A DNA stretch of 64,000 nt, from the NCBI GenBank assembly GCA_030612885.1, contig JAUWMZ010000004.1:17631-81630 (forward strand), in the 5' to 3' direction. Positions within the stretch are counted from its first letter, which is position 1. Each line of letters opens with the position of its first letter. Source of the DNA: Candidatus Nealsonbacteria bacterium (GTDB taxonomy: Bacteria > Patescibacteriota > Minisyncoccia > Minisyncoccales > JAGMDC01). Below the pieces are notes generated by a model. That model saw nothing but the letters and a program-made list of their open reading frames with translations, had not been told where the DNA came from and did no database searches. Positions 659 through 63,066 of this stretch are shown here, piece after piece. A program made the position numbers and the translations under genes.

Positions 659-1522
659 ATGGAAAAAAGTAAAATTATCATTGCTCTTTTGATTATTATA
701 GGACTGATAGGTCTTTTTTTCTTAGCTAAACAGGCCTCGCCAGAAACCTTCAAAGAGCTCGGTTTAAATTTGTCTTTACCCTGGTTTACTTTTATTATTG
801 CTATTATTGATGGTTTTAATCCCTGTACTTTATGGGTTTTGACTTTTTTGCTCGTTTTACTAATTTCTGTGTCTGAAACCCCCGAAGCAGAGCAAGCTCG
901 CTACGGGGCAGGCAGAAAAAGGATATTTATTGTTGGTTTAACTTTTGTATCAGTTATTTTTATTGTTTATTTTATGTTTATGACTGCCTGGTTAAATATA
1001 TTTCGTTATATAGGATTCATTGATCCATTAAGAATAATGATTGCCAGTGTAGCTTTGATTGCTGGAGCGATTAATTGCAAGGAGTTTTTCGCTTTTAGAA
1101 AAGGTATAACTTTAATGATACAAGAAAAACATAAACCTCTTTTAATGCAAAAGATAGAAAAAATGAAAGAGGTTATAAGATACGGCTCTCTGCCAGCCCT
1201 AATCACAGCTTCTGTTATACTGGCCTTGTTTTCTTCTTTGGTGGAGCTGCCTTGTACTGCTGGCTGGCCTATAATTTATACAGGTGTATTATCAGCAAAA
1301 GTTTTTGAAGGAACTATTTCTTTTTATATTTATTTATTGTTTTATAATCTTATTTACATCATACCTCTTAGCGCAGTGATATTATTATTTGGCTGGTTTT
1401 TCAAAGGTAAGAAAATTAGCAAAGAGCAAACACAAATAATAAAACTTATTGGCGGAGTAATAATGATTGCTCTGGGAATAATTTTATTAGTCAATCCAGG
1501 ATTATTAATGCTAATGGAGTAA
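659..1522 (+). CDS. CcdA/DsbD-like thiol-disulfide membrane electron transporter
   Basis: Polytopic membrane ORF with two Cys-in-TM motifs (GFNPCTLWVL, ELPCTAGWP); adjacent to two Trx-fold genes. Confidence 0.55.
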   Translation: MEKSKIIIALLIIIGLIGLFFLAKQASPETFKELGLNLSLPWFTFIIAIIDGFNPCTLWVLTFLLVLLISVSETPEAEQARYGAGRKRIFIVGLTFVSVIFIVYFMFMTAWLNIFRYIGFIDPLRIMIASVALIAGAINCKEFFAFRKGITLMIQEKHKPLLMQKIEKMKEVIRYGSLPALITASVILALFSSLVELPCTAGWPIIYTGVLSAKVFEGTISFYIYLLFYNLIYIIPLSAVILLFGWFFKGKKISKEQTQIIKLIGGVIMIALGIILLVNPGLLMLME

Positions 1523-3787: not shown

Positions 3788-5833
3788 TTATTTTTTGTAG
3801 TCGCACTCTTTATTTGAGCATTTGATTTTGCCTTTTTTTGTTTCTACTAAAAGAGAACCGCATTCAGGACATTTCTCATTAATTGGTTTGTCCCAAAGAG
3901 CAAAATCGCATTTTGGATATTGATTGCAGGCGTAAAATGTTTTTCCTTTTCTAGTTTTCTTCTCTATAATTTCTCCTTTGCCGCATTTAGGACATTTGAT
4001 ATTCAAAGACGGTCTTTCCAATGGTTTAGTGTATCTGCATTTTGGAAAGCTAGAGCAAGCGTAAAATTTTCCATATCTGCTCATTTTTTTTACCAAAGGC
4101 GAACCGCATTTAGGACATTTTTCATTTGTTTTTTCTTCAGCAATTTCTTTTTTAGCTATTTCTTTTTCCTTTACTTTTAAATTTTCTTCAAAAGGCTGAT
4201 AAAATTCTTTTATTACCGAAATCCATTTTCTTTTTCCTTCAGATATTTCATCTAAATCCTTTTCCATTTCCGCTGTAAATTTCATATCTACAATTTTAGG
4301 AAAATGTTTAACCAACAAATCATTAACGATGATTCCTATTTCTGTCGGCTCAAATTTTTTATTTTCATTTTTTTGAACATAATTTCTTTCCTGAATTGTA
4401 GAAATTGTAGGCGCATAAGTTGAAGGCCTGCCAATGCCGTTTTCTTCTAAAACTTTAATTAAGGTTGCCTCTGTATATCTGCCTGGCGGCTGGGTGAAAT
4501 GCTGTGAAGGAAGAAGTTTTAAGAGTTCTAATATCTCATTTATCTCAAGTACGGGCAGTTCGTTTTCTTCGTATTTAATGGAATATACCTTTAAGAATCC
4601 ATCAAATTTAAGTATCTGTCCGGTTGTTCTAAAGATATATTCTTTAGCGCTAATATCTACAGTAGTGGAGTCAAAGAGGGCTTGACTCATTTGACAAGCG
4701 ATAAATCTCCGCCAAATTAAATCATAAAGTCGAAGTTGGTTATCATCTAACTTAGCTTTTATCTCTAGTTTGTCAGGCTCTTTATCAGGATAAGCAGGTC
4801 TTATGGCTTCATGGGCTTCTTGAGCGCCTTTTGCTTTTGTTTTGTATTTCTTCAAAAACCCAGCCCAATATTCTTTTCCGTAATTATCAATGATAAATTT
4901 TCTTGCTCCAAACAAAGACATTTCAGATAGATTTAAAGAATCAGTTCTATGATAGGTAATAAGTCCTTTTTCATAGAGGCCCTGGGCAGTTCTCATTGTC
5001 ATTTTAGCGGGCCAGCGCAATCTTTTCCAGGATTCTTGCTGTAGAGTAGAGGTAGTAAAAGGCGGCAAAGGATTTCTTTTTATTTCTTTTTTTTCAATGT
5101 TTGAAATCTTGTATTCAGCTCCTTTTAAATCCTTAACAATCTTTTCCGTTTCTTTTTTTGTTTTAATTCCCAGTTTCGGAATTACTTTCCCATCTTTTTT
5201 AATAAGCTTTGCCAAGAATTCATTTTTCGCGTTGGTTTTGTGTGATTGAAGCTTTGCTTCAATCAGCCAATATTCTTCTGGCTTGAAATTTTTAATTTCT
5301 CTTTCCCGTTCCACTACCAGACGGACAGTTACCGATTGAACCCTTCCTGCAGAAAGTCCTCGGGCGACTTTTTTCCATAAAAGAGGGGAGAGTTTATAGC
5401 CAACCAAACGGTCTAAAATTCTTCTTGCTTGCTGAGCATTAACCAAATTTATGTCAATTTTTCTTGGATTTTTTAAGGCCTGCTCAATTGCTGATTTGGT
5501 AATTTCGTGAAAGACAATCCTTTGATACTTTTTACCATTTAAATTTAAAATTTGGCTTAGATGATAGGCGATTGCTTCTCCTTCTCTATCTTCATCAGTG
5601 GCCAAAATAAGCAGGTCTGTTTTTTGAGATTCTTTTTTAAGTAATGAAACTGTTTTTCTTGCTTTTAGAGGAATAACATATCTCGGCTTAAAATTTTTCT
5701 CTGTGTCTATTCCTAATTCACTTTTTGGCAAGTCGCGAATATGACCATAAGAAGATAGGACCTTGTATTTAGGTCCTAAAAAATTACTGATAGTCTTAGA
5801 TTTTGTAGGGCTTTCAACGATGACTAATTGCAT
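3788..5833 (-). CDS. topA: DNA topoisomerase I
   Basis: TOPRIM start MQLVIVESPTKSKTI, active-site region ITYHRTDS, C-terminal CxxC...CxxC zinc ribbons. Confidence 0.95.
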   Translation of the reverse strand: MQLVIVESPTKSKTISNFLGPKYKVLSSYGHIRDLPKSELGIDTEKNFKPRYVIPLKARKTVSLLKKESQKTDLLILATDEDREGEAIAYHLSQILNLNGKKYQRIVFHEITKSAIEQALKNPRKIDINLVNAQQARRILDRLVGYKLSPLLWKKVARGLSAGRVQSVTVRLVVEREREIKNFKPEEYWLIEAKLQSHKTNAKNEFLAKLIKKDGKVIPKLGIKTKKETEKIVKDLKGAEYKISNIEKKEIKRNPLPPFTTSTLQQESWKRLRWPAKMTMRTAQGLYEKGLITYHRTDSLNLSEMSLFGARKFIIDNYGKEYWAGFLKKYKTKAKGAQEAHEAIRPAYPDKEPDKLEIKAKLDDNQLRLYDLIWRRFIACQMSQALFDSTTVDISAKEYIFRTTGQILKFDGFLKVYSIKYEENELPVLEINEILELLKLLPSQHFTQPPGRYTEATLIKVLEENGIGRPSTYAPTISTIQERNYVQKNENKKFEPTEIGIIVNDLLVKHFPKIVDMKFTAEMEKDLDEISEGKRKWISVIKEFYQPFEENLKVKEKEIAKKEIAEEKTNEKCPKCGSPLVKKMSRYGKFYACSSFPKCRYTKPLERPSLNIKCPKCGKGEIIEKKTRKGKTFYACNQYPKCDFALWDKPINEKCPECGSLLVETKKGKIKCSNKECDYKK

Positions 5834-6692
5834 AGATATTTCCTCCTAAGTTTCTTACTTTGTTTTGTATCTCCAAATTAGAAAGAGTGCTTGCTACTTT
5901 GGCTGGACCAAGTTCTGTTCTTTCAATTATTTTATCAATATACAATGCTTGTTGAGATAAAGCAACCAAAACGAGTTTTTCTGCTTCATTTTCTCCTTTT
6001 ATCTCTTTTTTGTTGTTTAATTTAAATAGACCAGTGTCTAAATTTAGTTCTTTTAAAATATCTTTGGCATTTTCTACTAGCTTCGCGCCTCGTTTGATTA
6101 AAAAATGGCAGCCTTTAGAATTCTGGGAATAAATGGAGCCGGGCAGAGCAAAAACTTTTCTTCCTTGTTTTCTTGCCCATTCAGCAGTAATCAAGGCGCC
6201 GGATTTTTCTTTTGCCTCCACAACTAAAATACCCAAACTTAAGCCAGAAATTATCCGGTTTCTATTCGGAAAGCTGAATTTAGAACCAGGGGTTCCAGAA
6301 GGGTATTCAGAAATTAAAAGTCCATTCTTTTCTAAAACTTTTTCTACTAACTTTAAATTTGATTGGGGATAAATAGTTTTTTCATCTAAGCCGGTTCCTA
6401 AGACAGCAATTGTTCTTTTTTCTCTTTCTAAAACTCCTGAATGGGCTGCGGTGTCAATTCCTTGAGCAAAACCGCTGACAATGGTTAAGCCAGCCTCACT
6501 TAGATCGCCAGCGATTTCCAAGGCTGCTTGTTTTCCATAAGAAGAACACATTCTGGTTCCAACAATTCCAAAACAGGGCTCTTTAGCAATTATTTTTCCT
6601 CTGTAATAAAGAACCTCTGGCGCGCCTTTAATTTCTTTTAATCGCTTGGGATAATTCTCGTCCTCAATTGAGATGGTTTTTATCTCATTCAT
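5814..6692 (-). CDS. dprA: DNA-processing protein DprA
   Basis: GIVGTRMCSSYGKQAALEIAGDLSEAGLTIVSGFAQGIDTAAH Rossmann-like DprA core. Confidence 0.85.
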   Translation of the reverse strand: MNEIKTISIEDENYPKRLKEIKGAPEVLYYRGKIIAKEPCFGIVGTRMCSSYGKQAALEIAGDLSEAGLTIVSGFAQGIDTAAHSGVLEREKRTIAVLGTGLDEKTIYPQSNLKLVEKVLEKNGLLISEYPSGTPGSKFSFPNRNRIISGLSLGILVVEAKEKSGALITAEWARKQGRKVFALPGSIYSQNSKGCHFLIKRGAKLVENAKDILKELNLDTGLFKLNNKKEIKGENEAEKLVLVALSQQALYIDKIIERTELGPAKVASTLSNLEIQNKVRNLGGNIYAISHR

Positions 6693-15330: not shown

Positions 15331-16527
15331 ATGACTTTTTCTAATCTAAATTCAGTTTCCTATTTATTTTTCTTCCTGAAAAGAGAATCAGATAGATTTT
15401 TTACCAGTATTGCTATACGAGGTTTTGGGTTTGGAATGATTACTATATTTGTGCCAATTTATATCTATCAACATTTTAATTCTCTCCCTTTAACTTTTTT
15501 ATTCTTCGCCGGAATTTATGGATTGCAAGGAATTTTAATTCCATTTGGCGGTCAAATAATGATGAAAATCGGCCTTAAAAAAGCTATGCTTGTTTCCCTT
15601 CCTTTTTTTTGGGGATTTTATATCTGTCTGCTTTATTTTGATGTCTCTCAGTTATTTATCTTCTTATCTATAATTTTATATGTGTTGGGAATGATTTTTT
15701 TCTGGCCTGCTTATCATACTAATTTTGCTCGGGTCTCTGAAAGAAAAAAATTAGGAAAAGAAGTAGGAAAACTTAATTTTGTAGTTGCTTTGCCAGGAAT
15801 TTTAGCTCCGGCTATTGGCGGAACTATTATTGCTCTTTTTGGCTACCCTACTTTATTCATAACAGTTTTAGCTGTGCTTTTTAGTTCAGCTATTCCTTTA
15901 TTTTTATCAAAAGATATACATCAAGTTTATACTGACTCTTATCTAAAAGCATATCAAAGAATATTTAAAAAAGAAAATAGATATCACAATTTAGCTTTTG
16001 CCATTTTTGGTATAGAGGCAACAATAAATAACTGCATTTGGCCTATATTTTTAGCTATTTTAGCTATCGGCTATATTGCTATTGGAAGCGTGGCTAGCGT
16101 AGCTTTAATGGTCTCTTTATTTTTTACCTTGTATATGGGCAGAATTACCGACCGTCTGAATAAAACCAAACTTTTAGCCCTTGGTTCAGTACTTACTTCC
16201 GGCGCTTGGCTCGGAAAGTTTTTTGTGTTTAGTCCTATTTCCGCTTTTTTAGCTCAAGGATTTTATAGGTTTGCCAGGACATCAGTGGAGATTCCTTTCC
16301 AAACCATTTTATATGAAAAAGCAGAAGACAAAGGCGCAGAAATTGATGAATTTATTATTTATAGAGGAATGGCAATAGCGCTTCCTCGCTGCGCTTTTCT
16401 TATAGTTTTAGCAGGGCTGTCTTTTGTTATTTCTAACATAAACTTTGCTTTTATTTTGGCGGCGGTCTTTTCGTTAGGATTTATATTTATGGGAAAAATC
16501 CCAGAATTAAAATCCTGGCTTAGATAA
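15331..16527 (+). CDS. MFS-like polytopic membrane transporter
   Basis: 398 aa, about 10-12 hydrophobic segments, loop motif GRITDRLNKTK resembling MFS signature. Confidence 0.5.
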   Translation: MTFSNLNSVSYLFFFLKRESDRFFTSIAIRGFGFGMITIFVPIYIYQHFNSLPLTFLFFAGIYGLQGILIPFGGQIMMKIGLKKAMLVSLPFFWGFYICLLYFDVSQLFIFLSIILYVLGMIFFWPAYHTNFARVSERKKLGKEVGKLNFVVALPGILAPAIGGTIIALFGYPTLFITVLAVLFSSAIPLFLSKDIHQVYTDSYLKAYQRIFKKENRYHNLAFAIFGIEATINNCIWPIFLAILAIGYIAIGSVASVALMVSLFFTLYMGRITDRLNKTKLLALGSVLTSGAWLGKFFVFSPISAFLAQGFYRFARTSVEIPFQTILYEKAEDKGAEIDEFIIYRGMAIALPRCAFLIVLAGLSFVISNINFAFILAAVFSLGFIFMGKIPELKSWLR

Positions 16528-16536
16528 TAGTAAAAA

Positions 16537-17049
16537 ATGCTAAATAATATAGATTTTTATATTTTTCAACAGATAAATAATTGGGCTGGTCAATGGGCAT
16601 GGATTGATATGCTCGGTATTTTTTTTGCTAAATATTTTGGATATATTTTAGTTTTTTGTTTATTTTTGTTTTTAATCAAAAATTCCAAAAAGTATTGGCA
16701 AATGGTTTGGCAAGCAATCTTTGCTGGAATTATCTCTCGTTTAGTTTTTACTGAAATTATTCGCTGGATTTTTCCAAAATCCAGACCCTTTATAGAGAAC
16801 AACGTTAATTTATTACTAAATCATACCAATTCTTCTGCTTTTCCCTCTGGCCACGCTGCTTTTTATTTCGCCATATCTTCGGTTATCTATTTTTATAATA
16901 AAAAAATCGGCATATTGTTTTTTACAGCCAGCTTTTTAATTTGTTTAGCCAGAGTTTTTTGCGGCATCCATTGGCCATTAGATATTCTTGCCGGAGTATT
17001 ACTCGGCATTTTCTCCGGCTGGCTAATAATAAAAATTTTCAAGAAATAA
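16537..17049 (+). CDS. PAP2-family phosphatase (undecaprenyl-diphosphatase-like)
   Basis: KSRPF, PSGH, ARVFCGIHWPLD = PAP2 tripartite motif; membrane protein. Confidence 0.8.
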   Translation: MLNNIDFYIFQQINNWAGQWAWIDMLGIFFAKYFGYILVFCLFLFLIKNSKKYWQMVWQAIFAGIISRLVFTEIIRWIFPKSRPFIENNVNLLLNHTNSSAFPSGHAAFYFAISSVIYFYNKKIGILFFTASFLICLARVFCGIHWPLDILAGVLLGIFSGWLIIKIFKK

Positions 17050-17055
17050 TGTCTT

Positions 17056-17074
17056 GCAAACACCCTGTGTTTGT
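17056..17074. other. conserved hairpin ACAAACAC-NNN-GTGTTTGT family, copy 2
   Basis: gcaaacac-cct-gtgtttgt; same stem sequence as 3731-3749 and 53802-53826. Confidence 0.6.
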
Positions 17075-17076
17075 AA

Positions 17077-18192
17077 ATGTGTATGAAAGATTTAAAAGAA
17101 AAAGTTGGACAATTGTTTATTTGTAGAACCCCGGATAATATTGGCCAAATCGAAATGTTTGTAAATGAAAATATTGGCGGATTTATAATTGGTAAGGGTG
17201 GTGAAATCGTTTCTAAAAGTCAATCTACATTAGAAGGGGATAACTTAGAATCGTTAAAACGATTTGTAAAATTATTGAATAGATTATCGCAGAAGAATAA
17301 AAAAATCCCTTTATTTTTGGCAATTGACGGAGAAGGAGGAAAATATTTTAACAGGCTAAAATCTATTTCTGATTATAAATCTCCACGTTTCTATGGAAAG
17401 AAATTTGAAAAAGATGGAAATCTGGAGTTTTTTAAAAGGGAGGTGAAAAAATTTGCAGAGTTAATGAATCAAATTGGATTTAATATAAATTTTGCACCAT
17501 TGGTTGATTGCGCAAAGAAAGGGTATAAGGGATATCTGGCAGAAGAAGGAGTATTTATTAAAAATAAAGACGATTTAATAAAATCTGAGGTTATAGCAGC
17601 AAACAGGTCTTACTCTGATAAAATGGAAACAGTAATCACATTGGGCTTGACTGCAATGCGAATTTTTCAAGAACACAACATTATACCAACATTGAAACAT
17701 TTTCCTTCGTACGGAACCTTAAAGAAGAATCAAAATCCGCATAGAGTTTTAGTAAAATTAAAATTATCTAAAAACGAAATTTTAGCGCAGATTGAGCCAT
17801 ATAAAAAAGCTTTTAAAAATAGGTGCTATGCAATAATGAAAGGACATGTGATAACTTGTCTGGATTGGAATGCACCTGCATCACTTTCAGTTAAAACTGA
17901 TAAATTTCTAAGAGATAAATTAAATTTTGATGGTCTGGCAGTCGTGGATGAGTTACATATGGGTGCGATAAAACAATATTATTCAAGAATGAACTGTGAA
18001 GAAATTCTTAAAAAATCTGCTGTTGATGCCTTAAAAGTTAATGATATTATTTTAACTAGTCATCCAGAAGATTTTATTGTTATGCGGGATGCAATTGTTA
18101 AAGAAGCAAATAAAAATGAAAAATTTTTAGAGAGAGTTAATAAAGTATACAATAAGATATTGTATTATAAAAAAATCATAAATCTGCTATAA
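17077..18192 (+). CDS. glycoside hydrolase family 3-like (NagZ-type) protein
   Basis: LAIDGEGG, NFAPLVD, LKHFPSYG parallel GH3 motifs iDqEGG / aPvlD / KHFPGHG. Confidence 0.6.
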   Translation: MCMKDLKEKVGQLFICRTPDNIGQIEMFVNENIGGFIIGKGGEIVSKSQSTLEGDNLESLKRFVKLLNRLSQKNKKIPLFLAIDGEGGKYFNRLKSISDYKSPRFYGKKFEKDGNLEFFKREVKKFAELMNQIGFNINFAPLVDCAKKGYKGYLAEEGVFIKNKDDLIKSEVIAANRSYSDKMETVITLGLTAMRIFQEHNIIPTLKHFPSYGTLKKNQNPHRVLVKLKLSKNEILAQIEPYKKAFKNRCYAIMKGHVITCLDWNAPASLSVKTDKFLRDKLNFDGLAVVDELHMGAIKQYYSRMNCEEILKKSAVDALKVNDIILTSHPEDFIVMRDAIVKEANKNEKFLERVNKVYNKILYYKKIINLL

Positions 18193-35789: not shown

Positions 35790-36989
35790 ATGGCTGAGAA
35801 AGAAAAATTTGAAAGAGGAAAAACTCATCTTAATATTGGGACTATCGGTCACGTAGACCATGGTAAAACCACGCTTACAGCAGCTATTCTGCATGTTTTA
35901 AAGTTGAAAGGCTTTAAAGCATCGGAGAAAGCAGTAGAGCAGATTGATTCTGCTCCAGAAGAAAAAGCGCGTGGTTTAACTATTAATATTTCCCATTTAG
36001 AGTATGAAACAGAAAAGAGGCACTATGCGCATATTGATTGTCCTGGACACGCTGATTATATTAAAAATATGGTTACCGGTGCCGCGCAGATGGATGGAGC
36101 CATTTTGGTTGTTTCGGCTGCTGATGGTGTTATGCCTCAAACCAGAGAGCATATTTTGCTTGCTCGCCAAGTAGGATTATCTCATATAGTAGTATTTTTG
36201 AATAAATGTGATACCGTAGATGACCCTGAGATAATTGATTTAGTTGAGTCAGAAGTAAAAGAGCTTTTAAAAAAATATGAATTTCCAGGAGATGAAATTC
36301 CTGTTATTCGCGGTTCCGCTATTAAATCCCTTGATGCAAAGTCAGCTGATGATGAAGCAGCCAAACCAATTTTGGATTTAGCTAAAGCAGTAGATGATTA
36401 CTTTCCTGAACCAACTCGAGATATTGATAAACCATTTTTAATGGCTATTGAGGATGTTTTCTCTATTGCTGGAAGAGGAACTGTTGCTACTGGCAGGATT
36501 GAGCGAGGAATAGTTCATCCAAACGATGATGTAGAAATTGTTGGTTTTAAGCCTACCCAGAAAACAGTAGCAGTGAGCGTAGAAATGTTTAATAAGATAC
36601 TTGACGAAGGAAGAGCTGGTGATAATGTTGGAATTTTACTTCGCGGCCTTAAAAAAGAAGATGTGGAAAGAGGACAAGTTTTAGCAAATCCCGGCAGCAT
36701 TACTCCTCATACTGAATTTGACAGTGAAATTTATGTCCTGACCAAAGAAGAAGGTGGAAGACATTCTCCTTTCTTTGCCGGTTATAAGCCACAATTCTAT
36801 ATTCGAACGACTGATGTTACCGGAGATGTTGCCTTACCAGAAGGGACAGAGATGGTTATGCCCGGAGATACTGTTAATCTAAAAATTAAATTGATTGCTC
36901 CAATTGCTCTTGAAGAAAAACAAAGATTTGCTATCAGGGAAGGAGGTAAGACCGTAGGAGCAGGAGTAGTAACGAAGATAATTAAGTAA
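35790..36989 (+). CDS. tuf: elongation factor Tu
   Basis: [22 protein letters not shown], canonical EF-Tu throughout. Confidence 0.98.
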
Positions 36990-37117
36990 AATTTTCAATT
37001 TTCAATTTTTATTCAATTTTCAATTCTTTAATTTTCAATTAGAAATTAGAAATTAGAAATTGATTGAAAATTAGAAATTAGAAATTGAAAATTAATTCGT
37101 TGTTCTTTTGAGATAAG
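36990..37117 (+). repeat. hairpin spacer, ATTTTCAATT / AATTAGAAAT word family
   Basis: 5' half tandem attttcaatt units, 3' half tandem agaaatt / aattgaaaatt units. Confidence 0.8.
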
Positions 37118-38248: not shown

Positions 38249-38396
38249 CGCTCGGAAAGTAATTTTTAGGAGACGCTCATTCGCTTCCAGCGAGCGAATT
38301 CGCTCAGTTCTCGGCAAAATTCGAGCACTCAAGATGTTGAGTGCTCGACCAAGCAATTTTGCCTCGAGGTGCTCCATAAAAATTACTTTCCTCGCT
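38249..38396. mobile_element. GC-rich ~148-nt multi-stem repeat element, copy A (MITE-like / structured RNA)
   Basis: About 95% identical to 58959-59108. 15-bp outer stem ggaaagtaattttta/taaaaattactttcc; hairpins attcgct/agcgaat and cgagcactcaa/ttgagtgctcg; ggcaaaatt/aattttgcc. Confidence 0.8.
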
Positions 38397-38481: not shown

Positions 38482-39135
38482 ATGCCAACCATTCCAGTTT
38501 ACAATCAAAAAGGTGAAGAAACAGGAAAAACAGAATTACCTTCTGAGATATTTGAGGTTGCTTTTAGTCCTGATTTGGTTCATCAGGTTGTTGTTTCGCA
38601 AATGGCAAATCGAAGGCAGGTTAGCGCTCATACTAAAGACAGAAGTGAAGTGCGCGGAGGAGGCAAAAAACCCTGGCGGCAAAAAGGAACCGGAAGAGCA
38701 AGACATGGCTCTATCCGTTCACCTTTATGGAAGGGAGGAGGCGTAACATTTGGTCCGACTAAAGAGAGAAATTTTAAAAAAATAATTCCTAAAAAAATAA
38801 AAAGAAAAGCTCTTTTTATGGTTTTAAGCCAAAAGAAGAAAGATAATGAATTGGTTGTCTTAGATGAGTTGAAGATTGAGAAACCAGAGACAAAAATAAT
38901 GAAAGGAATAATCCAGAATCTGAAATCAAAAATTAAAAACATAAAAACAGAAAGTTTTCTAATCACTTTGCCAAAAATGGATAAGAATATCATTTTATCA
39001 ACCAGAAACATTCCTAAAATAGATACAATTCAAGCAAAAGAATTAAATTGTCTTGATATTTTAAATTATAAATACTTAATGCTTCCTAAAGAAGCAGTTG
39101 AAGTAATAAAAACTACGTTTTTAAAATCCCAATAA
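38482..39135 (+). CDS. rplD: 50S ribosomal protein L4
   Basis: VSAHTKDRSEVRGGGKKPWRQKGTGRARHGSIRSPLWKGGG. Confidence 0.96.
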   Translation: MPTIPVYNQKGEETGKTELPSEIFEVAFSPDLVHQVVVSQMANRRQVSAHTKDRSEVRGGGKKPWRQKGTGRARHGSIRSPLWKGGGVTFGPTKERNFKKIIPKKIKRKALFMVLSQKKKDNELVVLDELKIEKPETKIMKGIIQNLKSKIKNIKTESFLITLPKMDKNIILSTRNIPKIDTIQAKELNCLDILNYKYLMLPKEAVEVIKTTFLKSQ

Positions 39136-39263
39136 CCTATAATAATTTTCAATTTTCAATTTTCAATTTTCATTCAATTTTCAATTTAATAATTTTCAAT
39201 TAGAAATTAAAGAATTAGAAATTTATTAGAAATTAGAAATTAGAAATTAGAAATTTAAAACCT
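39136..39263 (+). repeat. hairpin spacer, ATTTTCAATT / AATTAGAAAT word family
   Basis: aattttcaattttcaattttcaattttcatt...attagaaattagaaattagaaattagaaattt. Confidence 0.8.
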
Positions 39264-39704
39264 GTGGCTTTACTTGATATCTTCAAAAGGAAGAAGAAAA
39301 AGGAAGAGAAAATTGAACCCGTAAAAAAGAAAGAAGAGGAGGCGAAAGAACCTCCTAAAGTTAGTGTTTCAAAACCCAAGCCCGCTTTCGTTAAAGCTAC
39401 GGCGGGCAGGGAAAAAAAGATTGATTTGGCTTGGAAGATTTTAGAGACACCTCATATTTCTGAAAAAGCCACTGATTTAACAAAGCAGAACAAATATGTT
39501 TTTAGGGTTTTTCCTAAATCAAATAAAAAAGAGATAAAAAAAGCAGTGGAAGATGTTTACGGGATAGATGTTTTAGATGTTAGAACTATTAAAATTCCCA
39601 GAAAGAAGAAGATGAGAGGCAGGGTTTCTGGCTGGAAAAAGGGCTATAAAAAAGCAATTGTGAAAATAAAAGAAGGCCAGAAGATAGAACTGTTACCTCG
39701 ATAA
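39264..39704 (+). CDS. rplW: 50S ribosomal protein L23 with Lys-rich N-terminal extension (GTG start)
   Basis: Core ILETPHISEKATDL...YVFRV; about 55-aa extension containing the KATAG hairpin insert. Confidence 0.9.
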   Translation: MALLDIFKRKKKKEEKIEPVKKKEEEAKEPPKVSVSKPKPAFVKATAGREKKIDLAWKILETPHISEKATDLTKQNKYVFRVFPKSNKKEIKKAVEDVYGIDVLDVRTIKIPRKKKMRGRVSGWKKGYKKAIVKIKEGQKIELLPR

Positions 39705-42831: not shown

Positions 42832-43062
42832 ATGAAAAAAGAATTAAAAGGAACAGTTGTTTCTAATAAAATGTCAAAAACTATAGTAGTAGAAGTGGAA
42901 AGGATAAAAGTTCATCCTAAATACAAGAGAAGATATAAAGTACACAAAAAATACAAAGCCCACAATGAAAAGGGAGAGTTTAAGGTAGGAGACAAAGTAA
43001 TTATTGAAGAATGCCGGCCATTATCTAAAGAGAAGAAGTGGAGAGTTATAAAAAAGGTTTAA
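42832..43062 (+). CDS. rpsQ: 30S ribosomal protein S17
   Basis: [20 protein letters not shown]...HPKYKR...HNE...[14 protein letters not shown]. Confidence 0.94.
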
Positions 43063-43186
43063 AATTTTCAATTATTTAATTTTCAATTTTCATTAAATTT
43101 TCAATTATTTAATTTTCAATTAAATAAAAATTAGAAATTGAATCATTAGAAATTTAATAGAAATTAGAAATTAGAAATTTCACATT
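43063..43186 (+). repeat. hairpin spacer, ATTTTCAATT / AATTAGAAAT word family
   Basis: aattttcaattatttaattttcaattttcatt...attagaaattgaatcattagaaatttaatagaaattagaaattagaaattt. Confidence 0.8.
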
Positions 43187-53833: not shown

Positions 53834-56224
53834 ATGAAAAAATCAGAAAAACTTATACTTTGGTACAGAGAAATCTCTAAAGATGATGTTGCTTTGGTTG
53901 GCGGGAAAAATGCTTCTCTGGGAGAGATGTTTTCGCAACTCACAAAAAAGGGAATTAACATTCCTGATGGTTTTGTTTTAACTTCAAAGGCATACTGGCA
54001 TTTCTTAAAAAAGAATCAGATTAACGAACAAATAAAAAAAATATTTAAGAATTTTAATCCAAAAAGTTTGAGTTCTTTAGAAAAAACCGGCAGAGATGCA
54101 AGGCAATTAATTTTAAAGTCTGAATTTCCACAGGACTTAAAAAAAGAGATTCTGGAAAATTATAGAAAGTTGTCTAAAAAATATAATAAAGGGAATGTCG
54201 ATGTCGCTGTAAGAAGTTCGGCCACTGCGGAAGACCTGCCAAGCGCGAGTTTTGCCGGCCAACATGAGACTTACTTGAATATTTCTGGCAGCGAAGAATT
54301 ATTAAAAGCCATTAAAAAATGTATGGCTTCTTTGTTTACTGATAGAGCCATTGCCTATCGTGATGAGAAAGGTTTTAATCACTTAAAAATTGCTTTATCT
54401 GTTGGAGTTCAAAAAATGATCAGGTCAGACATAGCTTCTTCTGGTATAATGTTTACCTTAGATACTGAAACTGGATTTCAAAATGTGGTTTTAATTAATT
54501 CTATCTATGGAATAGGAGAAATGATAGTTAAAGGGAAAATCACGCCTGATGAATTTTATGTTTTTAAGCCAACCCTTCGGCAGGCTCAGGGCAAGCTTTA
54601 CGAACCAATAATTTCAAAAAATTTGGGAAGGAAGAATAAACAATATATCTATAATAAAAATGGCGGATTGAAAGAAATTAAGGTTCCTCAAAACAAGCAA
54701 TTAAAATTTTCTTTAACTGATGACGAAATTTTATACTTAGCTAACTGGGCTTGTCAAATTGAAGAGCATTACAAAATGCCCCAAGATATTGAATGGGCAA
54801 AAGACGGAAAAACCGGAAAGTTATTTATTGTTCAAGCAAGGCCGGAGACAGTTCATACCTCTGAAGTTAAAAAAGTTTATGAAGAATATAGAATTCAAAC
54901 AAAGAAAAAGCCGATTTTAGAAGGAATTGCTGTTGGAAATAAAATCGGTCAGGGAAAAACAAGAATTGTTTCTAATATTTCAAAAATTAGTCAATTCAGA
55001 AAGGGAGAGGTTTTGGTAACCAAAATCACAGATCCGGACTGGGTTCCGATAATGCGGCTCGCTTCGGCTATTGTTACTGATGAAGGCGGCAAGACCTGCC
55101 ATTCTGCTATAGTGGCCCGGGAATTAGGAATACCCTGTATTGTTGGAACAAAAACCGCTACAAAAGTCTTGAAAAACGATCAAGATATAACCATTGATTG
55201 TACACAAGGATTAGAAGGAAGAATATTTTTAGGAAAAATTTCTTTTGAAATTAAAAAATATAATTTGAGAAAGATTCCCAAATTAAAAACAAAGATCATG
55301 CTCAACATCGGAGCGCCAGACATTGCTTTTAAGACTTCATTTTTGCCGAATGACGGAGTAGGATTAGCTAGAGAAGAGTTTATTATTGCGGAAAAAATTA
55401 GAATTCATCCCTTGGCTCTTTATCACTTTAAAGAATTAGAAGACAAAACATTAAAGAAAAAAATTGAGAAAATAAGCGTTGGATACAAAGATAAAAAGCA
55501 ATATTTTGTTGATAAGTTGGCAGAGGGAGTGGCGACAATTGCGGCAGCGTTTTATCCTAAAGAAGTAATTTTGAGATTTTCTGATTTTAAAAGCAATGAA
55601 TATAGAAATTTAATAGGCGGCGAACTTTTTGAGCAAGAAGAAGCAAATCCAATGCTGGGATTCAGGGGCGCCTGCCGTTATTTAGATAAAGAATTTCAGC
55701 CGGCCTTTCAAATGGAATGCCAGGCAATTAAAAAAGCAAGAGAAGAATTCGGCTTAAAAAATATCACTTTAATGGTTCCTTTTTGCCGAACAGTAGAGGA
55801 GGGGAAAAAAGTTTTAGATTTAATGAAAAAGTTTGGTTTGGAAAAAGGAAAAGATGGCTTAAAAGTCATTGTAATGTGCGAAATTCCTTCCAATGTTATT
55901 TTAGCAGATGAATTTTTAGACATTTTTGACGGGATGTCAATCGGTTCAAACGACCTTACTCAGTTATCATTAGGAATGGATAGGGACAATGCGCGGATTG
56001 CTCATATTACTGATGAGAGAAATCCGACTATTAAAAAAATGCTTTCAAAAGTGATTTATTTATGCCGCCAAAAGAAAAAATATTGCGGAATCTGCGGTGA
56101 AGCTCCTAGTACATATCCGGAATTTGCTGAATTTTTAGTTAAAGAAGGGATAGAAAGCATTTCTTTAAATCCAGACACTGTTATCAAAACAATTTTAAAC
56201 TTGGCAAAAAAGAAAAAAAAGTGA
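53834..56224 (+). CDS. ppsA: phosphoenolpyruvate synthase
   Basis: VGGKNASLGEM, VAVRSSATAEDLPSASFAGQHETYLN, phospho-His region TDEGGKTCHSAIVARELGIP, GSNDLTQ. Confidence 0.95.
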   Translation: MKKSEKLILWYREISKDDVALVGGKNASLGEMFSQLTKKGINIPDGFVLTSKAYWHFLKKNQINEQIKKIFKNFNPKSLSSLEKTGRDARQLILKSEFPQDLKKEILENYRKLSKKYNKGNVDVAVRSSATAEDLPSASFAGQHETYLNISGSEELLKAIKKCMASLFTDRAIAYRDEKGFNHLKIALSVGVQKMIRSDIASSGIMFTLDTETGFQNVVLINSIYGIGEMIVKGKITPDEFYVFKPTLRQAQGKLYEPIISKNLGRKNKQYIYNKNGGLKEIKVPQNKQLKFSLTDDEILYLANWACQIEEHYKMPQDIEWAKDGKTGKLFIVQARPETVHTSEVKKVYEEYRIQTKKKPILEGIAVGNKIGQGKTRIVSNISKISQFRKGEVLVTKITDPDWVPIMRLASAIVTDEGGKTCHSAIVARELGIPCIVGTKTATKVLKNDQDITIDCTQGLEGRIFLGKISFEIKKYNLRKIPKLKTKIMLNIGAPDIAFKTSFLPNDGVGLAREEFIIAEKIRIHPLALYHFKELEDKTLKKKIEKISVGYKDKKQYFVDKLAEGVATIAAAFYPKEVILRFSDFKSNEYRNLIGGELFEQEEANPMLGFRGACRYLDKEFQPAFQMECQAIKKAREEFGLKNITLMVPFCRTVEEGKKVLDLMKKFGLEKGKDGLKVIVMCEIPSNVILADEFLDIFDGMSIGSNDLTQLSLGMDRDNARIAHITDERNPTIKKMLSKVIYLCRQKKKYCGICGEAPSTYPEFAEFLVKEGIESISLNPDTVIKTILNLAKKKKK

Positions 56225-58307: not shown

Positions 58308-58973
58308 ATGCTTAGTTTATCTGCTAAAATTAGAAAAGAAGAAAAACCAAGTGTCCTTAGAAGTAAGGGTCTTTTGCCCGCGGTTCTATATGGTCCCAAG
58401 ATTAAAAACTTTTCTTTACAGATAGATGAGAAAGAATTTGAAAAAATTTTTAAAGAAGCAGGCGAGAGCTCATTGATTAAATTAAAAGTTGATGAAAATG
58501 AATTCTTGATTTTAATTCACGATTTCCAAAAAGACCCATTAAAAGGAAATTTTATCCATATTGATTTTTATCAACCTGCTCTTGACGAAGAGACCGAAGC
58601 TACCGTGCCTTTGGAGTTTATAGGTGAAGCACCGGCAGTGAAAGAATTAGCAGGAACATTAGTTAAAAATATTAAAGAATTAGAGGTAAAAGCTTTGCCT
58701 CAAAATCTTCCTCATGATATTAAAGTTAATGTGGAAAGTTTAAAAACCTTTGAAGACAGTATTACAGTAAAGGATTTAAAAATTCCAGAAGGAGTAAAAA
58801 TATCAAAAGAGCCGGAGGAAGTCATAGCTTTAGTTACTCCGCCAGAAAAGGTAGAGGAAGAATTAGAAAAGCCAGTTGAGGAAAAAGTAGAGGAGGTGGA
58901 GAAAGTAGGCGAGAAGGAAAAAGAGGAGAAGAAAGAGGAGGAAGGAAAAGAAGAAATCCGCTCGGAAAAGTAA
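58308..58973 (+). CDS. rplY: 50S ribosomal protein L25/Ctc-type with Glu/Lys-rich tail
   Basis: Start placed at ATG 58308 (MLSLSAKIRKEE...LRSKGLLPAVLYG); last 5 codons and stop lie inside repeat copy B. Confidence 0.88.
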   Translation: MLSLSAKIRKEEKPSVLRSKGLLPAVLYGPKIKNFSLQIDEKEFEKIFKEAGESSLIKLKVDENEFLILIHDFQKDPLKGNFIHIDFYQPALDEETEATVPLEFIGEAPAVKELAGTLVKNIKELEVKALPQNLPHDIKVNVESLKTFEDSITVKDLKIPEGVKISKEPEEVIALVTPPEKVEEELEKPVEEKVEEVEKVGEKEKEEKKEEEGKEEIRSEK

Positions 58974-59108
58974 TTTTTAGGAGACGCTCGTTCGCTTCCA
59001 GCGAGCGAACTCGCTCAGCTCTCGGCAAAATTCGAGCACTCAATGTTTTGAGTACTCGACCAAGCAATTTTGCCTCGAGGTGCTCCATAAAAACTACTTT
59101 TCCTCGCT
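58959..59108. mobile_element. GC-rich ~150-nt multi-stem repeat element, copy B
   Basis: Collinear with 38249-38396; differences include a compensatory A-T to G-C pair swap and paired 1-nt indels in the outer stem. Confidence 0.8.
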
Positions 59109-62047: not shown

Positions 62048-62215
62048 CCCCGCACCAATTTTGCGTTCCGATTTGCACTTTACTTACAATAATAACAAAA
62101 ATAAGTTAAACTTCCGCGGCACACTTAACACGAATAGTGTTGTCCGCCTTTGGCGGACTGGGCTATTCGCCCTTCGTGTGCCGCTAATGAACTCTATGGC
62201 AAAATTGGTGCGGGG
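62048..62215. mobile_element. 168-bp MITE-like element: 17-bp perfect terminal inverted repeats, TTGA target duplication, internal four-way junction
   Basis: ccccgcaccaattttgc (62048-64) / gcaaaattggtgcgggg (62199-215); TTGA at 62044-47 and 62216-19; inner stems 62116-24/62176-84, 62127-41, 62142-58, 62160-72. Confidence 0.7.
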
Positions 62216-62244
62216 TTGATTATTTTTTAAAGTGATGATATATT
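62216..62244 (+). promoter_or_regulatory. putative rpsB promoter (TTGATT-17-TATATT)
   Basis: The -35 overlaps the right TTGA flank of the MITE; the -10 ends 9 nt before ATG 62254 (near-leaderless). Confidence 0.4.
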
Positions 62245-62253
62245 AAAGCTATT

Positions 62254-63066
62254 ATGACGGATAAAAAAGAAACCAAAAAGAAACAAAAAGAAGAAAAAGA
62301 AACTAAACCCGCCTCCGCTAAAGCTACGGCGGGCAAGGAAGAAAAAAAAGTTGAAGTAAAGAAAGTTCCTAAGAAGGAAACTGATTTTAAAATTGATACA
62401 GATAAAATGCTGGAAGCCGGAGTTCATTTTGGCCATCGGACTTCCCGACTCCATCCCAAAATGGAACCATATTTAGCTGGTGTCAAGAATACGGTTCATA
62501 TTATTGATTTAGAAAAAACAGCGGAAAAATTAAAAGAAGCCTTGAAATTCATTCAAGAAATTGTTTCTGAAAATAAGGTTTTGCTTTTAGTAGGGACAAA
62601 AATTCAGATTAAAGATTTAGTTGGGGAAACTGCTCAAGAATGTGAATTACCTTATGTTAACGAAAGATGGCTAGGCGGCACCCTGACTAATTTTGAAGTA
62701 ATTTCAAAAAGAGTTGGATACTTAAAAGAAATAGAGGAAAAGAAAGCAAGCGGAGCATGGGAAAAATACACAAAAAAGGAAAGGATTAAAATGAATAGGG
62801 AATATCAGAATTTAAAAACAAAATTTGAAGGCATTAAAACACTCTCCAGAGTTCCTGATGCTATGTTTGTTTTAGATATAAGAAAGGATGATTTAGCAGT
62901 GAAAGAAGCCAGAATGAAAGGGATAAAAGTAATTGCTGTTTGTGATACTAATACTGATCCAAGTTTAGTTGATTATCCTATTCCAGCAAATGATGACGCT
63001 ATCTCTTCGGTGAAGTATATTCTTGAAAAAGTTAAGGAAGCGATACTCAAAGCAAAGGCGAAATAA
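62254..63066 (+). CDS. rpsB: 30S ribosomal protein S2 with ~50-aa Lys-rich N-terminal extension
   Basis: MLEAGVHFGHRTSRLHPKM core; extension contains the KATAG hairpin insert. Confidence 0.93.
   Translation: MTDKKETKKKQKEEKETKPASAKATAGKEEKKVEVKKVPKKETDFKIDTDKMLEAGVHFGHRTSRLHPKMEPYLAGVKNTVHIIDLEKTAEKLKEALKFIQEIVSENKVLLLVGTKIQIKDLVGETAQECELPYVNERWLGGTLTNFEVISKRVGYLKEIEEKKASGAWEKYTKKERIKMNREYQNLKTKFEGIKTLSRVPDAMFVLDIRKDDLAVKEARMKGIKVIAVCDTNTDPSLVDYPIPANDDAISSVKYILEKVKEAILKAKAK

Follow-up and report, generated by a model that had tools for sequence, protein, structure and literature searches.

The DNA analyzed here is a 64-kb stretch (the window) of contig JAUWMZ010000004.1 from an ultra-small Candidatus Nealsonbacteria bacterium, and its subject is a short G+C-rich hairpin that lies in frame in two of its ribosomal protein genes, rplW (L23) and rpsB (S2). 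The window has a G+C content of 33% and carries a ribosomal protein cluster of the S10/spc type, with the genes for L3, L4, L23, L2, S19, and L22, as well as the rpsB-tsf pair. The names of the closest homologues, as given by their source, place it within Parcubacteria (Patescibacteria, candidate phyla radiation, CPR).

The shared unit in rplW and rpsB

The initial annotation had described one in-frame hairpin of ~40 nt shared by the N-terminal extensions of L23 and S2. The quoted sequences were present as described. A repeat search of the window paired positions 39373-39418 with 62300-62345 (83%), and both places contain the exact 16-mer AAAGCTACGGCGGGCA (39393-39408 and 62320-62335), which occurs at no third place. 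In 100 dinucleotide-preserving shuffles of the window, this 16-mer had a mean of 0.12 matches, and none of the shuffles contained two. Comparison with orthologues and with the wider family described below set the limits of the unit at 30 nt instead of ~40 nt. Its general form in the window is CCCGCC-TYC-GY-TAAA-GC-TAC-GGCGGG-CARG, and the two copies are identical at 26 of the 30 positions. The stem claimed for both was confirmed by folding: a G+C-rich stem of 6-7 bp and a GC-UAAA-GC tip, separated by a 3x3 internal loop (UYC/UAC), with energies of -13.8 kcal/mol for the rplW unit and -13.6 kcal/mol for the rpsB unit. The encoded peptides are KPAFVKATAGRE in L23 and KPASAKATAGKE in S2, and the codons of the unit (ACG GCG GGC) are G+C-rich compared with the 33% G+C of the genome. 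When the window was scanned with R1, a covariance model of the hairpin family, copy 1 scored 47.6 bits (E = 1.4e-8) and copy 2 scored 55.1 bits (E = 3.3e-10); these were the sole family members detected. A terminator scan flagged neither copy on either strand; both lie inside open reading frames (ORFs), and their sense strands have no T-run. The coordinates are collected in Table 1.

Table 1. Location of the hairpin units, their host genes, and related features. Positions are those of the window unless a locus (L number) is named.
Feature	Location	Strand	Description
Hairpin unit copy 1	39381..39410	+	CCCGCT TTC GT TAAA GC TAC GGCGGG CAGG; in frame in rplW; encodes PAFVKATAGR
Hairpin unit copy 2	62308..62337	+	CCCGCC TCC GC TAAA GC TAC GGCGGG CAAG; in frame in rpsB; encodes PASAKATAGK
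rplW (L23) ORF	39264..39704	+	Lys-rich N-terminal extension, host of copy 1
rpsB (S2) ORF	62254..63066	+	N-terminal extension, host of copy 2
rpsB promoter-like TTGATT-17-TATATT (with TG)	62216..62244	+	ends 10 nt before ATG 62254; block conserved in relatives
G+C-rich hairpin insertion CCCCG...CGGGG CAGG	880..912	+	in frame in CcdA/DsbD-like membrane protein, ORF 659-1522
tRNA-Ser (or tmRNA) GIY-YIG module	L255 2343-2734		
tRNA-Ser (or tmRNA) GIY-YIG module	L258 1934-2737		
tRNA-Ser (or tmRNA) GIY-YIG module	L260 2281-2743		
tRNA-Ser (or tmRNA) GIY-YIG module	L263 2324-2752		
tRNA-Ser (or tmRNA) GIY-YIG module	L062 1053-1546		
tRNA-Ser (or tmRNA) GIY-YIG module	L104 100-1050		
tRNA-Ser (or tmRNA) GIY-YIG module	L213 9681-10146		
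tRNA-Ser (or tmRNA) GIY-YIG module	L264		
tRNA-Ser (or tmRNA) GIY-YIG module	L257		
tRNA-Ser (or tmRNA) GIY-YIG module	L236		
tRNA-Ser (or tmRNA) GIY-YIG module	L253		

The position of the units relative to the translation starts was examined in both genes. The rplW start codon (GTG or ATG) occupied the same aligned position in four loci. All of the 120 listed L23 homologues matched PF00276, and they were mostly 130-165 residues long; in most of them, an N-terminal MALLDIFKKKK motif is followed by a variable Lys/Glu-rich linker and the canonical core. The rplW unit is placed between this conserved motif and the core, and the indels in the extension of aligned relatives are whole codons. In rpsB, there are zero in-frame starts from the unit to the conserved DFKID motif. 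Because the start codons, the L23 motif, and the rpsB promoter all lie upstream of the units, both units are inside reading frames, and we infer that the ten extra codons are decoded in L23 and S2.

The presence of the unit varied among close relatives. S2 of L003, with a core 94% identical to that of the window, lacks exactly 30 nt between AAG and GAA, S2 of L001 (85% identical) contains the unit, and S2 of L005 contains it with its 3' half duplicated. For L23, the sister lineage is L007 (core identity 91%, L2 88% identical). Its flanks are nearly identical, and exactly 30 nt are missing at the window's site as a clean AAG/GAA-type indel, while a copy of the unit lies elsewhere, directly after the N-terminal motif. 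L006 has a copy after this motif, and its member at the site used in the window is longer and inverted; a decayed copy occupies that site in L008, which is more distant. The position just after the motif is occupied in L006, L007, P0003, P0007, and P0008, and the window's unit lies near the end of the linker. The strict unit was present in 4/120 L23 and 5/120 S2 listed homologues. Orthologues without the unit therefore exist for both genes. The suggestion that the unit contributes to the extensions was not borne out, as most orthologues have the extension without it.

Several other features were observed in these genes and their neighborhood. The L23 extension contains a second palindrome, AGGAGG CGAAAGAA CCTCCT (39337-39356), which encodes EEAKEPP, was terminator-like on the minus strand according to the scan, and is conserved only partly in relatives. 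A+T-rich spacers of GAAATTA repeats separate ribosomal protein genes at 36970-37091, 39131-39253, and 43051-43184, one of them directly upstream of rplW. The S2 homologues P0126, P0128, P0175, P0203, and P0208 have a different insert, D-L-T-A-T-Q-K-S/L-L-R/G-D/N-F, between KKETD and FKID, with three tandem copies in P0175; this is probably another in-frame repeat family, known here from protein sequence alone. L008 has an ORF of the Trp-repressor family between rplC and rplD (1424-1936), and L003 has a LAGLIDADG endonuclease ORF (16404-17096).

Distribution and contexts of the hairpin family

The family was traced by two complementary scans. Species genomes (one genome per species) were scanned with the pattern TYCGYTAAARCTACGNCGGGY, which leaves the 5' arm free, and metagenomes were scanned reciprocally, with the 5' arm and loop fixed and the 3' arm free. 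The pattern matched at least 120 loci in species genomes, compared with ~17 chance matches by our own estimate for 36 bits. Among the matches listed, the family spans at least 14 phyla and a locus G+C of 0.26-0.72, with 0.26-0.70 for the species-genome matches. Copies were found in many Patescibacteria lineages, Gamma- and Alphaproteobacteria, Thermodesulfobacteriota, Bacteroidota, Ignavibacteria, Planctomycetota, Acidobacteriota, Verrucomicrobiota, Chloroflexota, Nitrospirota, Omnitrophota, Armatimonadota, and Neomarinimicrobiota. One match comes from an isolate, Chryseolinea serpens DSM 24574, and it is therefore unlikely that the cross-phylum matches are assembly or contamination artifacts. 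Thus, the unit is not unique to the two loci of the window. The palindrome seen in ribosomal protein genes is indeed present in L23 and S2, but it is specific neither to ribosomal proteins nor to this lineage, and is pan-bacterial.

The arms of the hairpin covary, so the palindrome itself is conserved. The unconstrained 5' arm was CCCGCC in 57 and CCCTCC in 28 of the 125 copies listed, and the base left free in the 3' arm changed with it. With the 3' arm free, the reciprocal scan paired CCCGCC with GGCGGG and CCCTCC with GGAGGG (G-C 40, T-A 53, G-A 1; Fisher p = 5.6e-15 among the matches listed). In an alignment of 70 sequences, 95% of the cells pair, and 16 cells are compensatory compared with 2.1 in shuffles, with 0/500 shuffles reaching the observed value; covariation was seen at three pairs of the hairpin. 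The inner pair is C-G, T-A, or T.G, and never C.A. In the metagenome scan, there were also subfamilies that have a bulged base or contain a T.C mismatch. CCCTCC/GGCGGG had been taken as a G.U wobble; this was withdrawn, as it is a T.C mismatch and uninformative on the strand.

The conserved region has a sharp start at the 5' stem and declines ~4-5 bases past the 3' stem, which matches the 30-nt indels. The family consists of a conserved base, CCCKCC-TYCG...CTWC-GGMGGG, a YARR tail, and a free apex. CTAC inside the internal loop alternates with CTTC. The tail is C/T-A-A/G-G/A, mostly CAAG, CAGG, or TAAA (CTTG on the opposite strand), and outside the pattern selection the apex can be CTAAAG, CCAAGG, TTAAAA, or a long palindrome on the same fixed base. 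The rplW copy matches the family consensus at 27/30 positions and the rpsB copy at 29/30. Both are thus nearer to the consensus than to each other, which fits independent insertions rather than copying between rplW and rpsB.

Four of the unit's six frames are stop-free, and all four are in use. Among the 125 genome copies listed are ones that encode PAFAKATAGK (28), PPSLKLRRA (12), LARRSFSEGG (19), or LPAVALAKA (17), and 47 that lie outside long ORFs. With respect to the host ORF, copies occur on both strands; others lie in spacers or next to tRNA genes, and nested (A-A-B-B), tandem, and inverted copies were seen. The host proteins, mostly from CPR and named here from sequence motifs, include ValRS-like, MetRS-like, SmpB-like, MiaA-like, and L22-like proteins; the C-terminal tail of L25 also carries copies. 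The PAFAKATAGK frame was used in 24/31 in-frame copies examined, mostly from CPR, an excess that we read as selection for the least harmful peptide.

The hairpins were also concentrated at tRNA and tmRNA genes, with 33/253 lying within 100 nt of such a gene, compared with 5.7 on average and at most 13 after random placement in the same loci. Downstream of tRNA or tmRNA genes (L213, L062, and L104), the antisense form with a T-run follows the gene directly in a terminator-like arrangement. Several copies on the upstream side of tRNAs stop 1-2 nt short of the mature 5' end. Hairpins that abut a tRNA or tmRNA were recorded at L079 4409-4438, L081 7330-7359, L065 6478-6507, and L213 9767-9796, and in L193, L204, L128, L142, and L152; some of these start 1 nt after the 3' end.

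Searches of databases and literature did not identify the element. The unit had no Rfam match, either at gathering thresholds across the window or at E values up to 10 for a 121-nt piece, and a permissive E on multi-copy loci and the region upstream of rpsB returned tRNAs and chance matches, and nothing else. No paper was found with the unit sequence, its reverse complement, or the encoded peptides, and nothing relevant on palindromic elements in CPR, on repetitive extragenic palindromic (REP) sequences in Patescibacteria, or on GIY-YIG proteins with palindromic repeats. The hairpin sequence is absent from the supplements of a REP survey (PMC3733652). Records of cultured phages and plasmids contained no copy, with chance partial matches only, and IMG/VR contained 6 copies only, which makes viruses no obvious vector.

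Some copies have additional features. In the T/A subfamily (for example, L253 6897-6930 and L264 ~2480-2500), the antisense 3' arm, GCGAAGGAGGG, matches a Shine-Dalgarno sequence perfectly, and the 5' arm, CCCTCC, is similar to an anti-Shine-Dalgarno sequence. Ahead of GIY-YIG genes, this half-site lies at Shine-Dalgarno distance from the ATG. In many solo copies, such as L056, L060, L128, and L157, GCCCGCC often comes after the tail, so that three arms result (CCCGCC...GGCGGGC-AR-GCCCGCC), in some cases together with a T-run. By analogy with an attenuator switch, the middle arm could pair either way.

Explanations for the hairpin and its movement

We consider it probable, at roughly three in four, that the two units are members of a widespread REP-like family of miniature palindromes of ~30 nt, tolerated as ten extra codons. 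On this evidence, they look like translated mobile or selfish DNA rather than a ribosomal feature. The earlier suggestion of a small mobile palindrome tolerated in the extensions is thus supported by the exact indels of 30 nt, the breadth of the family, and the covariation. Under this explanation, the hairpin would have inserted independently into rplW and rpsB. Insertion would occur in trans, by an enzyme that recognizes the base of the hairpin when the DNA is single-stranded, by analogy with REPs and their REP-associated tyrosine transposases (RAYTs). The insert would persist because a stop-free, hydrophilic peptide of ten codons (PxxAKATxGK) is presumably harmless in a disordered, Lys-rich extension, where the hairpin in the mRNA would be read through and translated. 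Loss might proceed by hairpin-stimulated slippage between flanking AAG/AAG triplets.

Several observations weigh against this explanation. Neither a transposase nor another recurrent neighbor gene was found in 120 loci, and target-site duplications of 3-5 nt were not above permutation controls. The copy number is low, with two copies in 64 kb and, in multi-locus genomes, 1-2 exact-pattern copies per locus; classical REPs number in the hundreds. A near-identical 30-mer across phyla is unusual for a lineage-bound selfish repeat and could reflect a conserved function. Between the S2 units of the window and L001, 9/10 third codon positions are the same, compared with 63% gene-wide, and this sameness could reflect selection at the nucleotide level. 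Many non-coding copies look useful, resembling terminators after tRNA or tmRNA genes. Finally, translation of the ten codons is itself something that we infer.

Some of these points would suit a cis-acting RNA signal common to ribosomal protein mRNAs, serving regulator binding, ribosome pausing, or mRNA stabilization. We regard such a signal as unlikely. It would account for the covarying structure, for the inner pair, which on this strand can be T.G but never C.A, for the unusually conserved third positions shared with L001, and for the recurrence of hosts among ribosomal protein extensions (L23, S2, L22, and L25); elsewhere, the hairpin is sited as a possible terminator or processing signal at tRNA genes. 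However, the closest relatives lack the unit, its position in L23 differs by lineage, and fewer than 5% of the listed L23 and S2 homologues carry it. The unit is also present in spacers and in unrelated genes, where it lies in either orientation to the host ORF, and neither window copy was flagged as a terminator on either strand. A more specific version, an autoregulatory leader of a ribosomal protein mRNA, was rejected, as the unit is inside the ORF, is polymorphic among close relatives, and has no Rfam match.

Recognition could instead take place at the level of DNA, with the hairpin being an uptake sequence or the site of a repair, replication, or topology protein that accumulates where it is tolerated. 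In Neisseria and Pasteurellaceae, DNA uptake sequences and uptake signal sequences (DUS/USS) lie inside genes and as terminator pairs. The distribution of the hairpin, with tolerated frames in genes, inverted pairs, and terminator positions, resembles what we know of DUS/USS, and its base is conserved while the apex is free. Known uptake signals are, however, lineage-specific and have hundreds to thousands of copies per genome, unlike a hairpin of low density with the same sequence across phyla. Moreover, this hairpin comes and goes as clean 30-nt blocks and not by point mutation. We therefore hold a DNA-level signal to be quite improbable.

It is less credible still that a functional peptide, KPxxAKATAGK, is selected in CPR ribosomal proteins, with the palindrome as a by-product of the symmetry of Pro/Gly and Ala/Ala codons. 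The same peptide does occur in L23 and S2 of several Parcubacteria, and it is the frame that prevails among the in-frame copies examined. But the nucleotide unit is also found in three other frames and in non-coding DNA, and this diversity of frame and orientation contradicts selection of one peptide. In addition, its codons are G+C-rich for this genome, the arms covary as base pairs (P-A..A-G versus P-S..E-G), and its presence differs between near-identical orthologues.

The two remaining explanations have next to no probability. A TTG at ~39426 would yield an L23 of canonical length, and canonical L23 and S2 (E. coli) have no such N-terminal extensions, but placing the units in 5' untranslated regions conflicts with the motif and start conserved upstream of the unit in most listed L23 homologues, the whole-codon indels, the lack of an in-frame start between the rpsB unit and DFKID, and the conserved promoter just ahead of the rpsB ATG. 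Similarly, gene conversion or patch copying between rplW and rpsB as a private event would explain the common 16-mer, but it is refuted by the collection scans, which found the unit in hundreds of unrelated loci, and it is at odds with the presence of the unit in orthologues of each gene separately and with the closer match of each copy to the pan-bacterial consensus than to its partner.

The search for a gene that could move the palindrome covered the neighboring ORFs. In an all-against-all clustering of neighbor ORFs from 120 loci, the largest cluster, ABC ATPases, was rejected as a linked gene because it equaled the background. Longer flanking repeats in some Bacteroidota loci were not duplications of a target site but tandem arrays of hairpin plus spacer. 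A RAYT was rejected as the mobilizer: 1.76 Mb of loci contained one RAYT-like match (L163), and it is flanked by different REPs, of the GTAG type. This locus (4438-5070 and 5872-5975) is a classical REPtron, with the RAYT-like gene between inverted GTAG REPs (GTAGCCGGCATCGGTGATGCCGGC). The same REP is also inserted as a doublet, in frame, in a neighboring ORF, where a copy of the family hairpin precedes it by 1 nt.

Another candidate emerged from small GIY-YIG ORFs, which were enriched in hairpin-selected loci (9/246). Six independent loci were then chosen by the GIY-YIG protein itself. In 5/6 of these, the gene lies 70-230 nt downstream of a tRNA-Ser, and the sixth has a remnant resembling a tRNA 3' end; family hairpins detectable by the model were present in 4/6, within 140 nt upstream of the start. 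The shared module consists of the tRNA 3' end ..CTCCGCC, TTCGC-apex-GCTWC, GGCGGAC-NNN-GTCCGC, a Shine-Dalgarno sequence, and the ATG of an 80-aa GIY-YIG nuclease (YLKSGSGRAF subfamily). In the tRNA-Ser module, the acceptor 3' strand of the tRNA itself serves a family-type hairpin as its 5' arm. A downstream GIY-YIG gene accompanied tRNA-Ser trailers beginning with TTCGC in 7/12 cases versus 3/17. Within the module, the nuclease gene is often present in two copies, read-through N-terminal extensions of the GIY-YIG proteins encode SYGGQ and GRPSADKVRFY peptides, and the three-arm layout described above for solo copies also occurs.

From these associations, we tentatively favor the small GIY-YIG nuclease as the candidate mobilizer, although the proposal is more doubtful than the existence of the mobile family. 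The nuclease, or the repair of its breaks, would copy the 30-nt hairpin into ectopic sites, including essential genes, where the hairpin would become ten new codons. The hairpin might then be the non-autonomous form of a cross-phylum mobile system with its home at tRNA-Ser trailers, of which we found no description; this, too, we consider possible but doubtful. The hairpin and the nuclease gene may also each favor tRNA trailers independently, without a functional link.

Other palindromes were observed in the window. The 3' part of the unit had also been matched to an in-frame hairpin at 879-910 in a membrane protein gene. A real in-frame hairpin insertion lies there (Table 1). It comprises ~11-12 codons (TPEAEQARYGAG), is absent from 23 usable aligned homologues of the membrane protein, and folds with z = -4.1 (880-908). 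It shares with the family only GCTACGG and the GGCAGG end, which includes the CAGG tail, read in another frame, and it was rejected as a family member by R1 (7.9 bits, E = 8.5). We treat it as a separate element, at best a distant relative of the family. A second candidate, at 54571-54597 (AACCC TTCGGCAGGCTCA GGGCAAGCT), has ends resembling the family (CCC TTCG ... GGG CAAG), but its R1 match was not significant (E = 5.2) and its fold was no better than shuffles; it may be a decayed copy or chance.

Two further repeats have other sequences. A repeat of ~140 nt occurs in two copies (38256-38389 and 58967-59100) that are 94% identical and have terminal inverted repeats, GGAAAAGTAATTTTTAGGAG...CTCCATAAAAATTACTTTTCC; it looks like a MITE (a miniature transposable element with inverted repeats). 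One copy starts right after the rplC stop; the other reaches into the L25 gene at its 3' end, so that the final codons and the stop of L25 come from the repeat. A near-perfect hairpin of 70 nt (62116-62185; GCGGCACAC...GTCCGCC TTT GGCGGAC...GTGTGCCGC) lies upstream of the rpsB promoter and folds with -43.7 kcal/mol (z = -6). It is absent from the same spacer of L001, L003, and L005 and has no Rfam match, and it is probably another inserted palindrome.

Relation to known palindromic elements

The peptides PxFAKATxGK, PPSLKLRRA, LARRSFSEGG, and LPAVALAKA in CPR and other environmental proteins are readings of one DNA hairpin in translation, rather than motifs of the proteins themselves, and can be expected to distort alignments, the placing of domain boundaries, and the calling of start codons. 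The extensions of CPR ribosomal proteins probably also serve as landing pads for such DNA. A covarying 30-base sequence that recurs almost unchanged in at least 14 phyla, and for which neither an Rfam entry nor a paper was found, is unusual. Its conservation points to a shared mobilizing or binding partner, or to repeated horizontal spread. The tRNA boundary and the GIY-YIG link offer a concrete hypothesis for the movement of miniature palindromes, a matter unsettled even for classical REPs.

Intrinsic terminators, DNA uptake sequences paired as terminators, and MITEs were also compared. The antisense form with its T-run right after tRNA or tmRNA genes in L213, L062, and L104 is terminator-like, but the window copies have no sense T-run and were not flagged, and the sequence is conserved far beyond what termination needs. 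In contrast to MITEs, which have terminal inverted repeats and a target-site duplication, the element is a single hairpin, and no such duplication was found above the controls.

Yeast mitochondrial genomes, which are A+T-rich, contain mobile G+C clusters and 'byp' elements, reportedly treated by Lang et al. in 2014; byps interrupt the frame and are bypassed by the ribosome. The clusters and byps resemble the unit as short G+C-rich palindromes in an A+T-rich genome, coding sequence included. The differences are that they belong to an organelle and not a bacterium, and that the unit is a stop-free multiple of three, so that read-through is the simple expectation.

Rickettsia palindromic elements (RPEs), as Ogata et al. 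reportedly described them in 2000, are selfish palindromes in frame in essential genes of a reduced genome, translated as extra loops. RPE-1 measures roughly 100-150 bp, and RPEs are not known outside Rickettsia. Judged from their sequence, the window units are likewise in frame, tolerated, and presumably read through. The unit differs from RPEs in its length of 30 nt and in its range of at least 14 phyla.

The closest likeness is to REPs of the GTAG-3 type, which have a stem, non-complementary di- or trinucleotides, and an apex that is flanked by GC and varies in length (Di Nocera et al. 2013, PMC3733652). The family hairpin is likewise an imperfect G+C-rich palindrome of 20-40 nt with the same order of stem, internal loop, and apex, and a short unpaired tail at one end. 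Its subfamilies differ by complementary stem changes, mismatches, and bulges, and it occurs as singletons, tandem and inverted dimers, and clusters, with occasional whole copies in ORFs; REPs inside ORFs, including occasional whole copies, have been reported as well (PMC3733652). The tail distinguishes the two, as it is YARR (CAAG) in the family and GTAG or CGTC in REPs. Furthermore, the density is low, with both copies of the 64-kb window intragenic and dimers, nested copies, and arrays found elsewhere, and no RAYT was linked to the family within the 1.76 Mb of loci searched, where the one RAYT had its own different GTAG REPs. The survey sorts GTAG repeats into 24 families and CGTC repeats into 4, some but not all of which are found in distant species, and it treats RPE-4 and RPE-6 as CGTC REPs (PMC3733652). 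In contrast to these separate families, one sequence of the hairpin family spans at least 14 phyla. We place the element within the REP/RPE kind.

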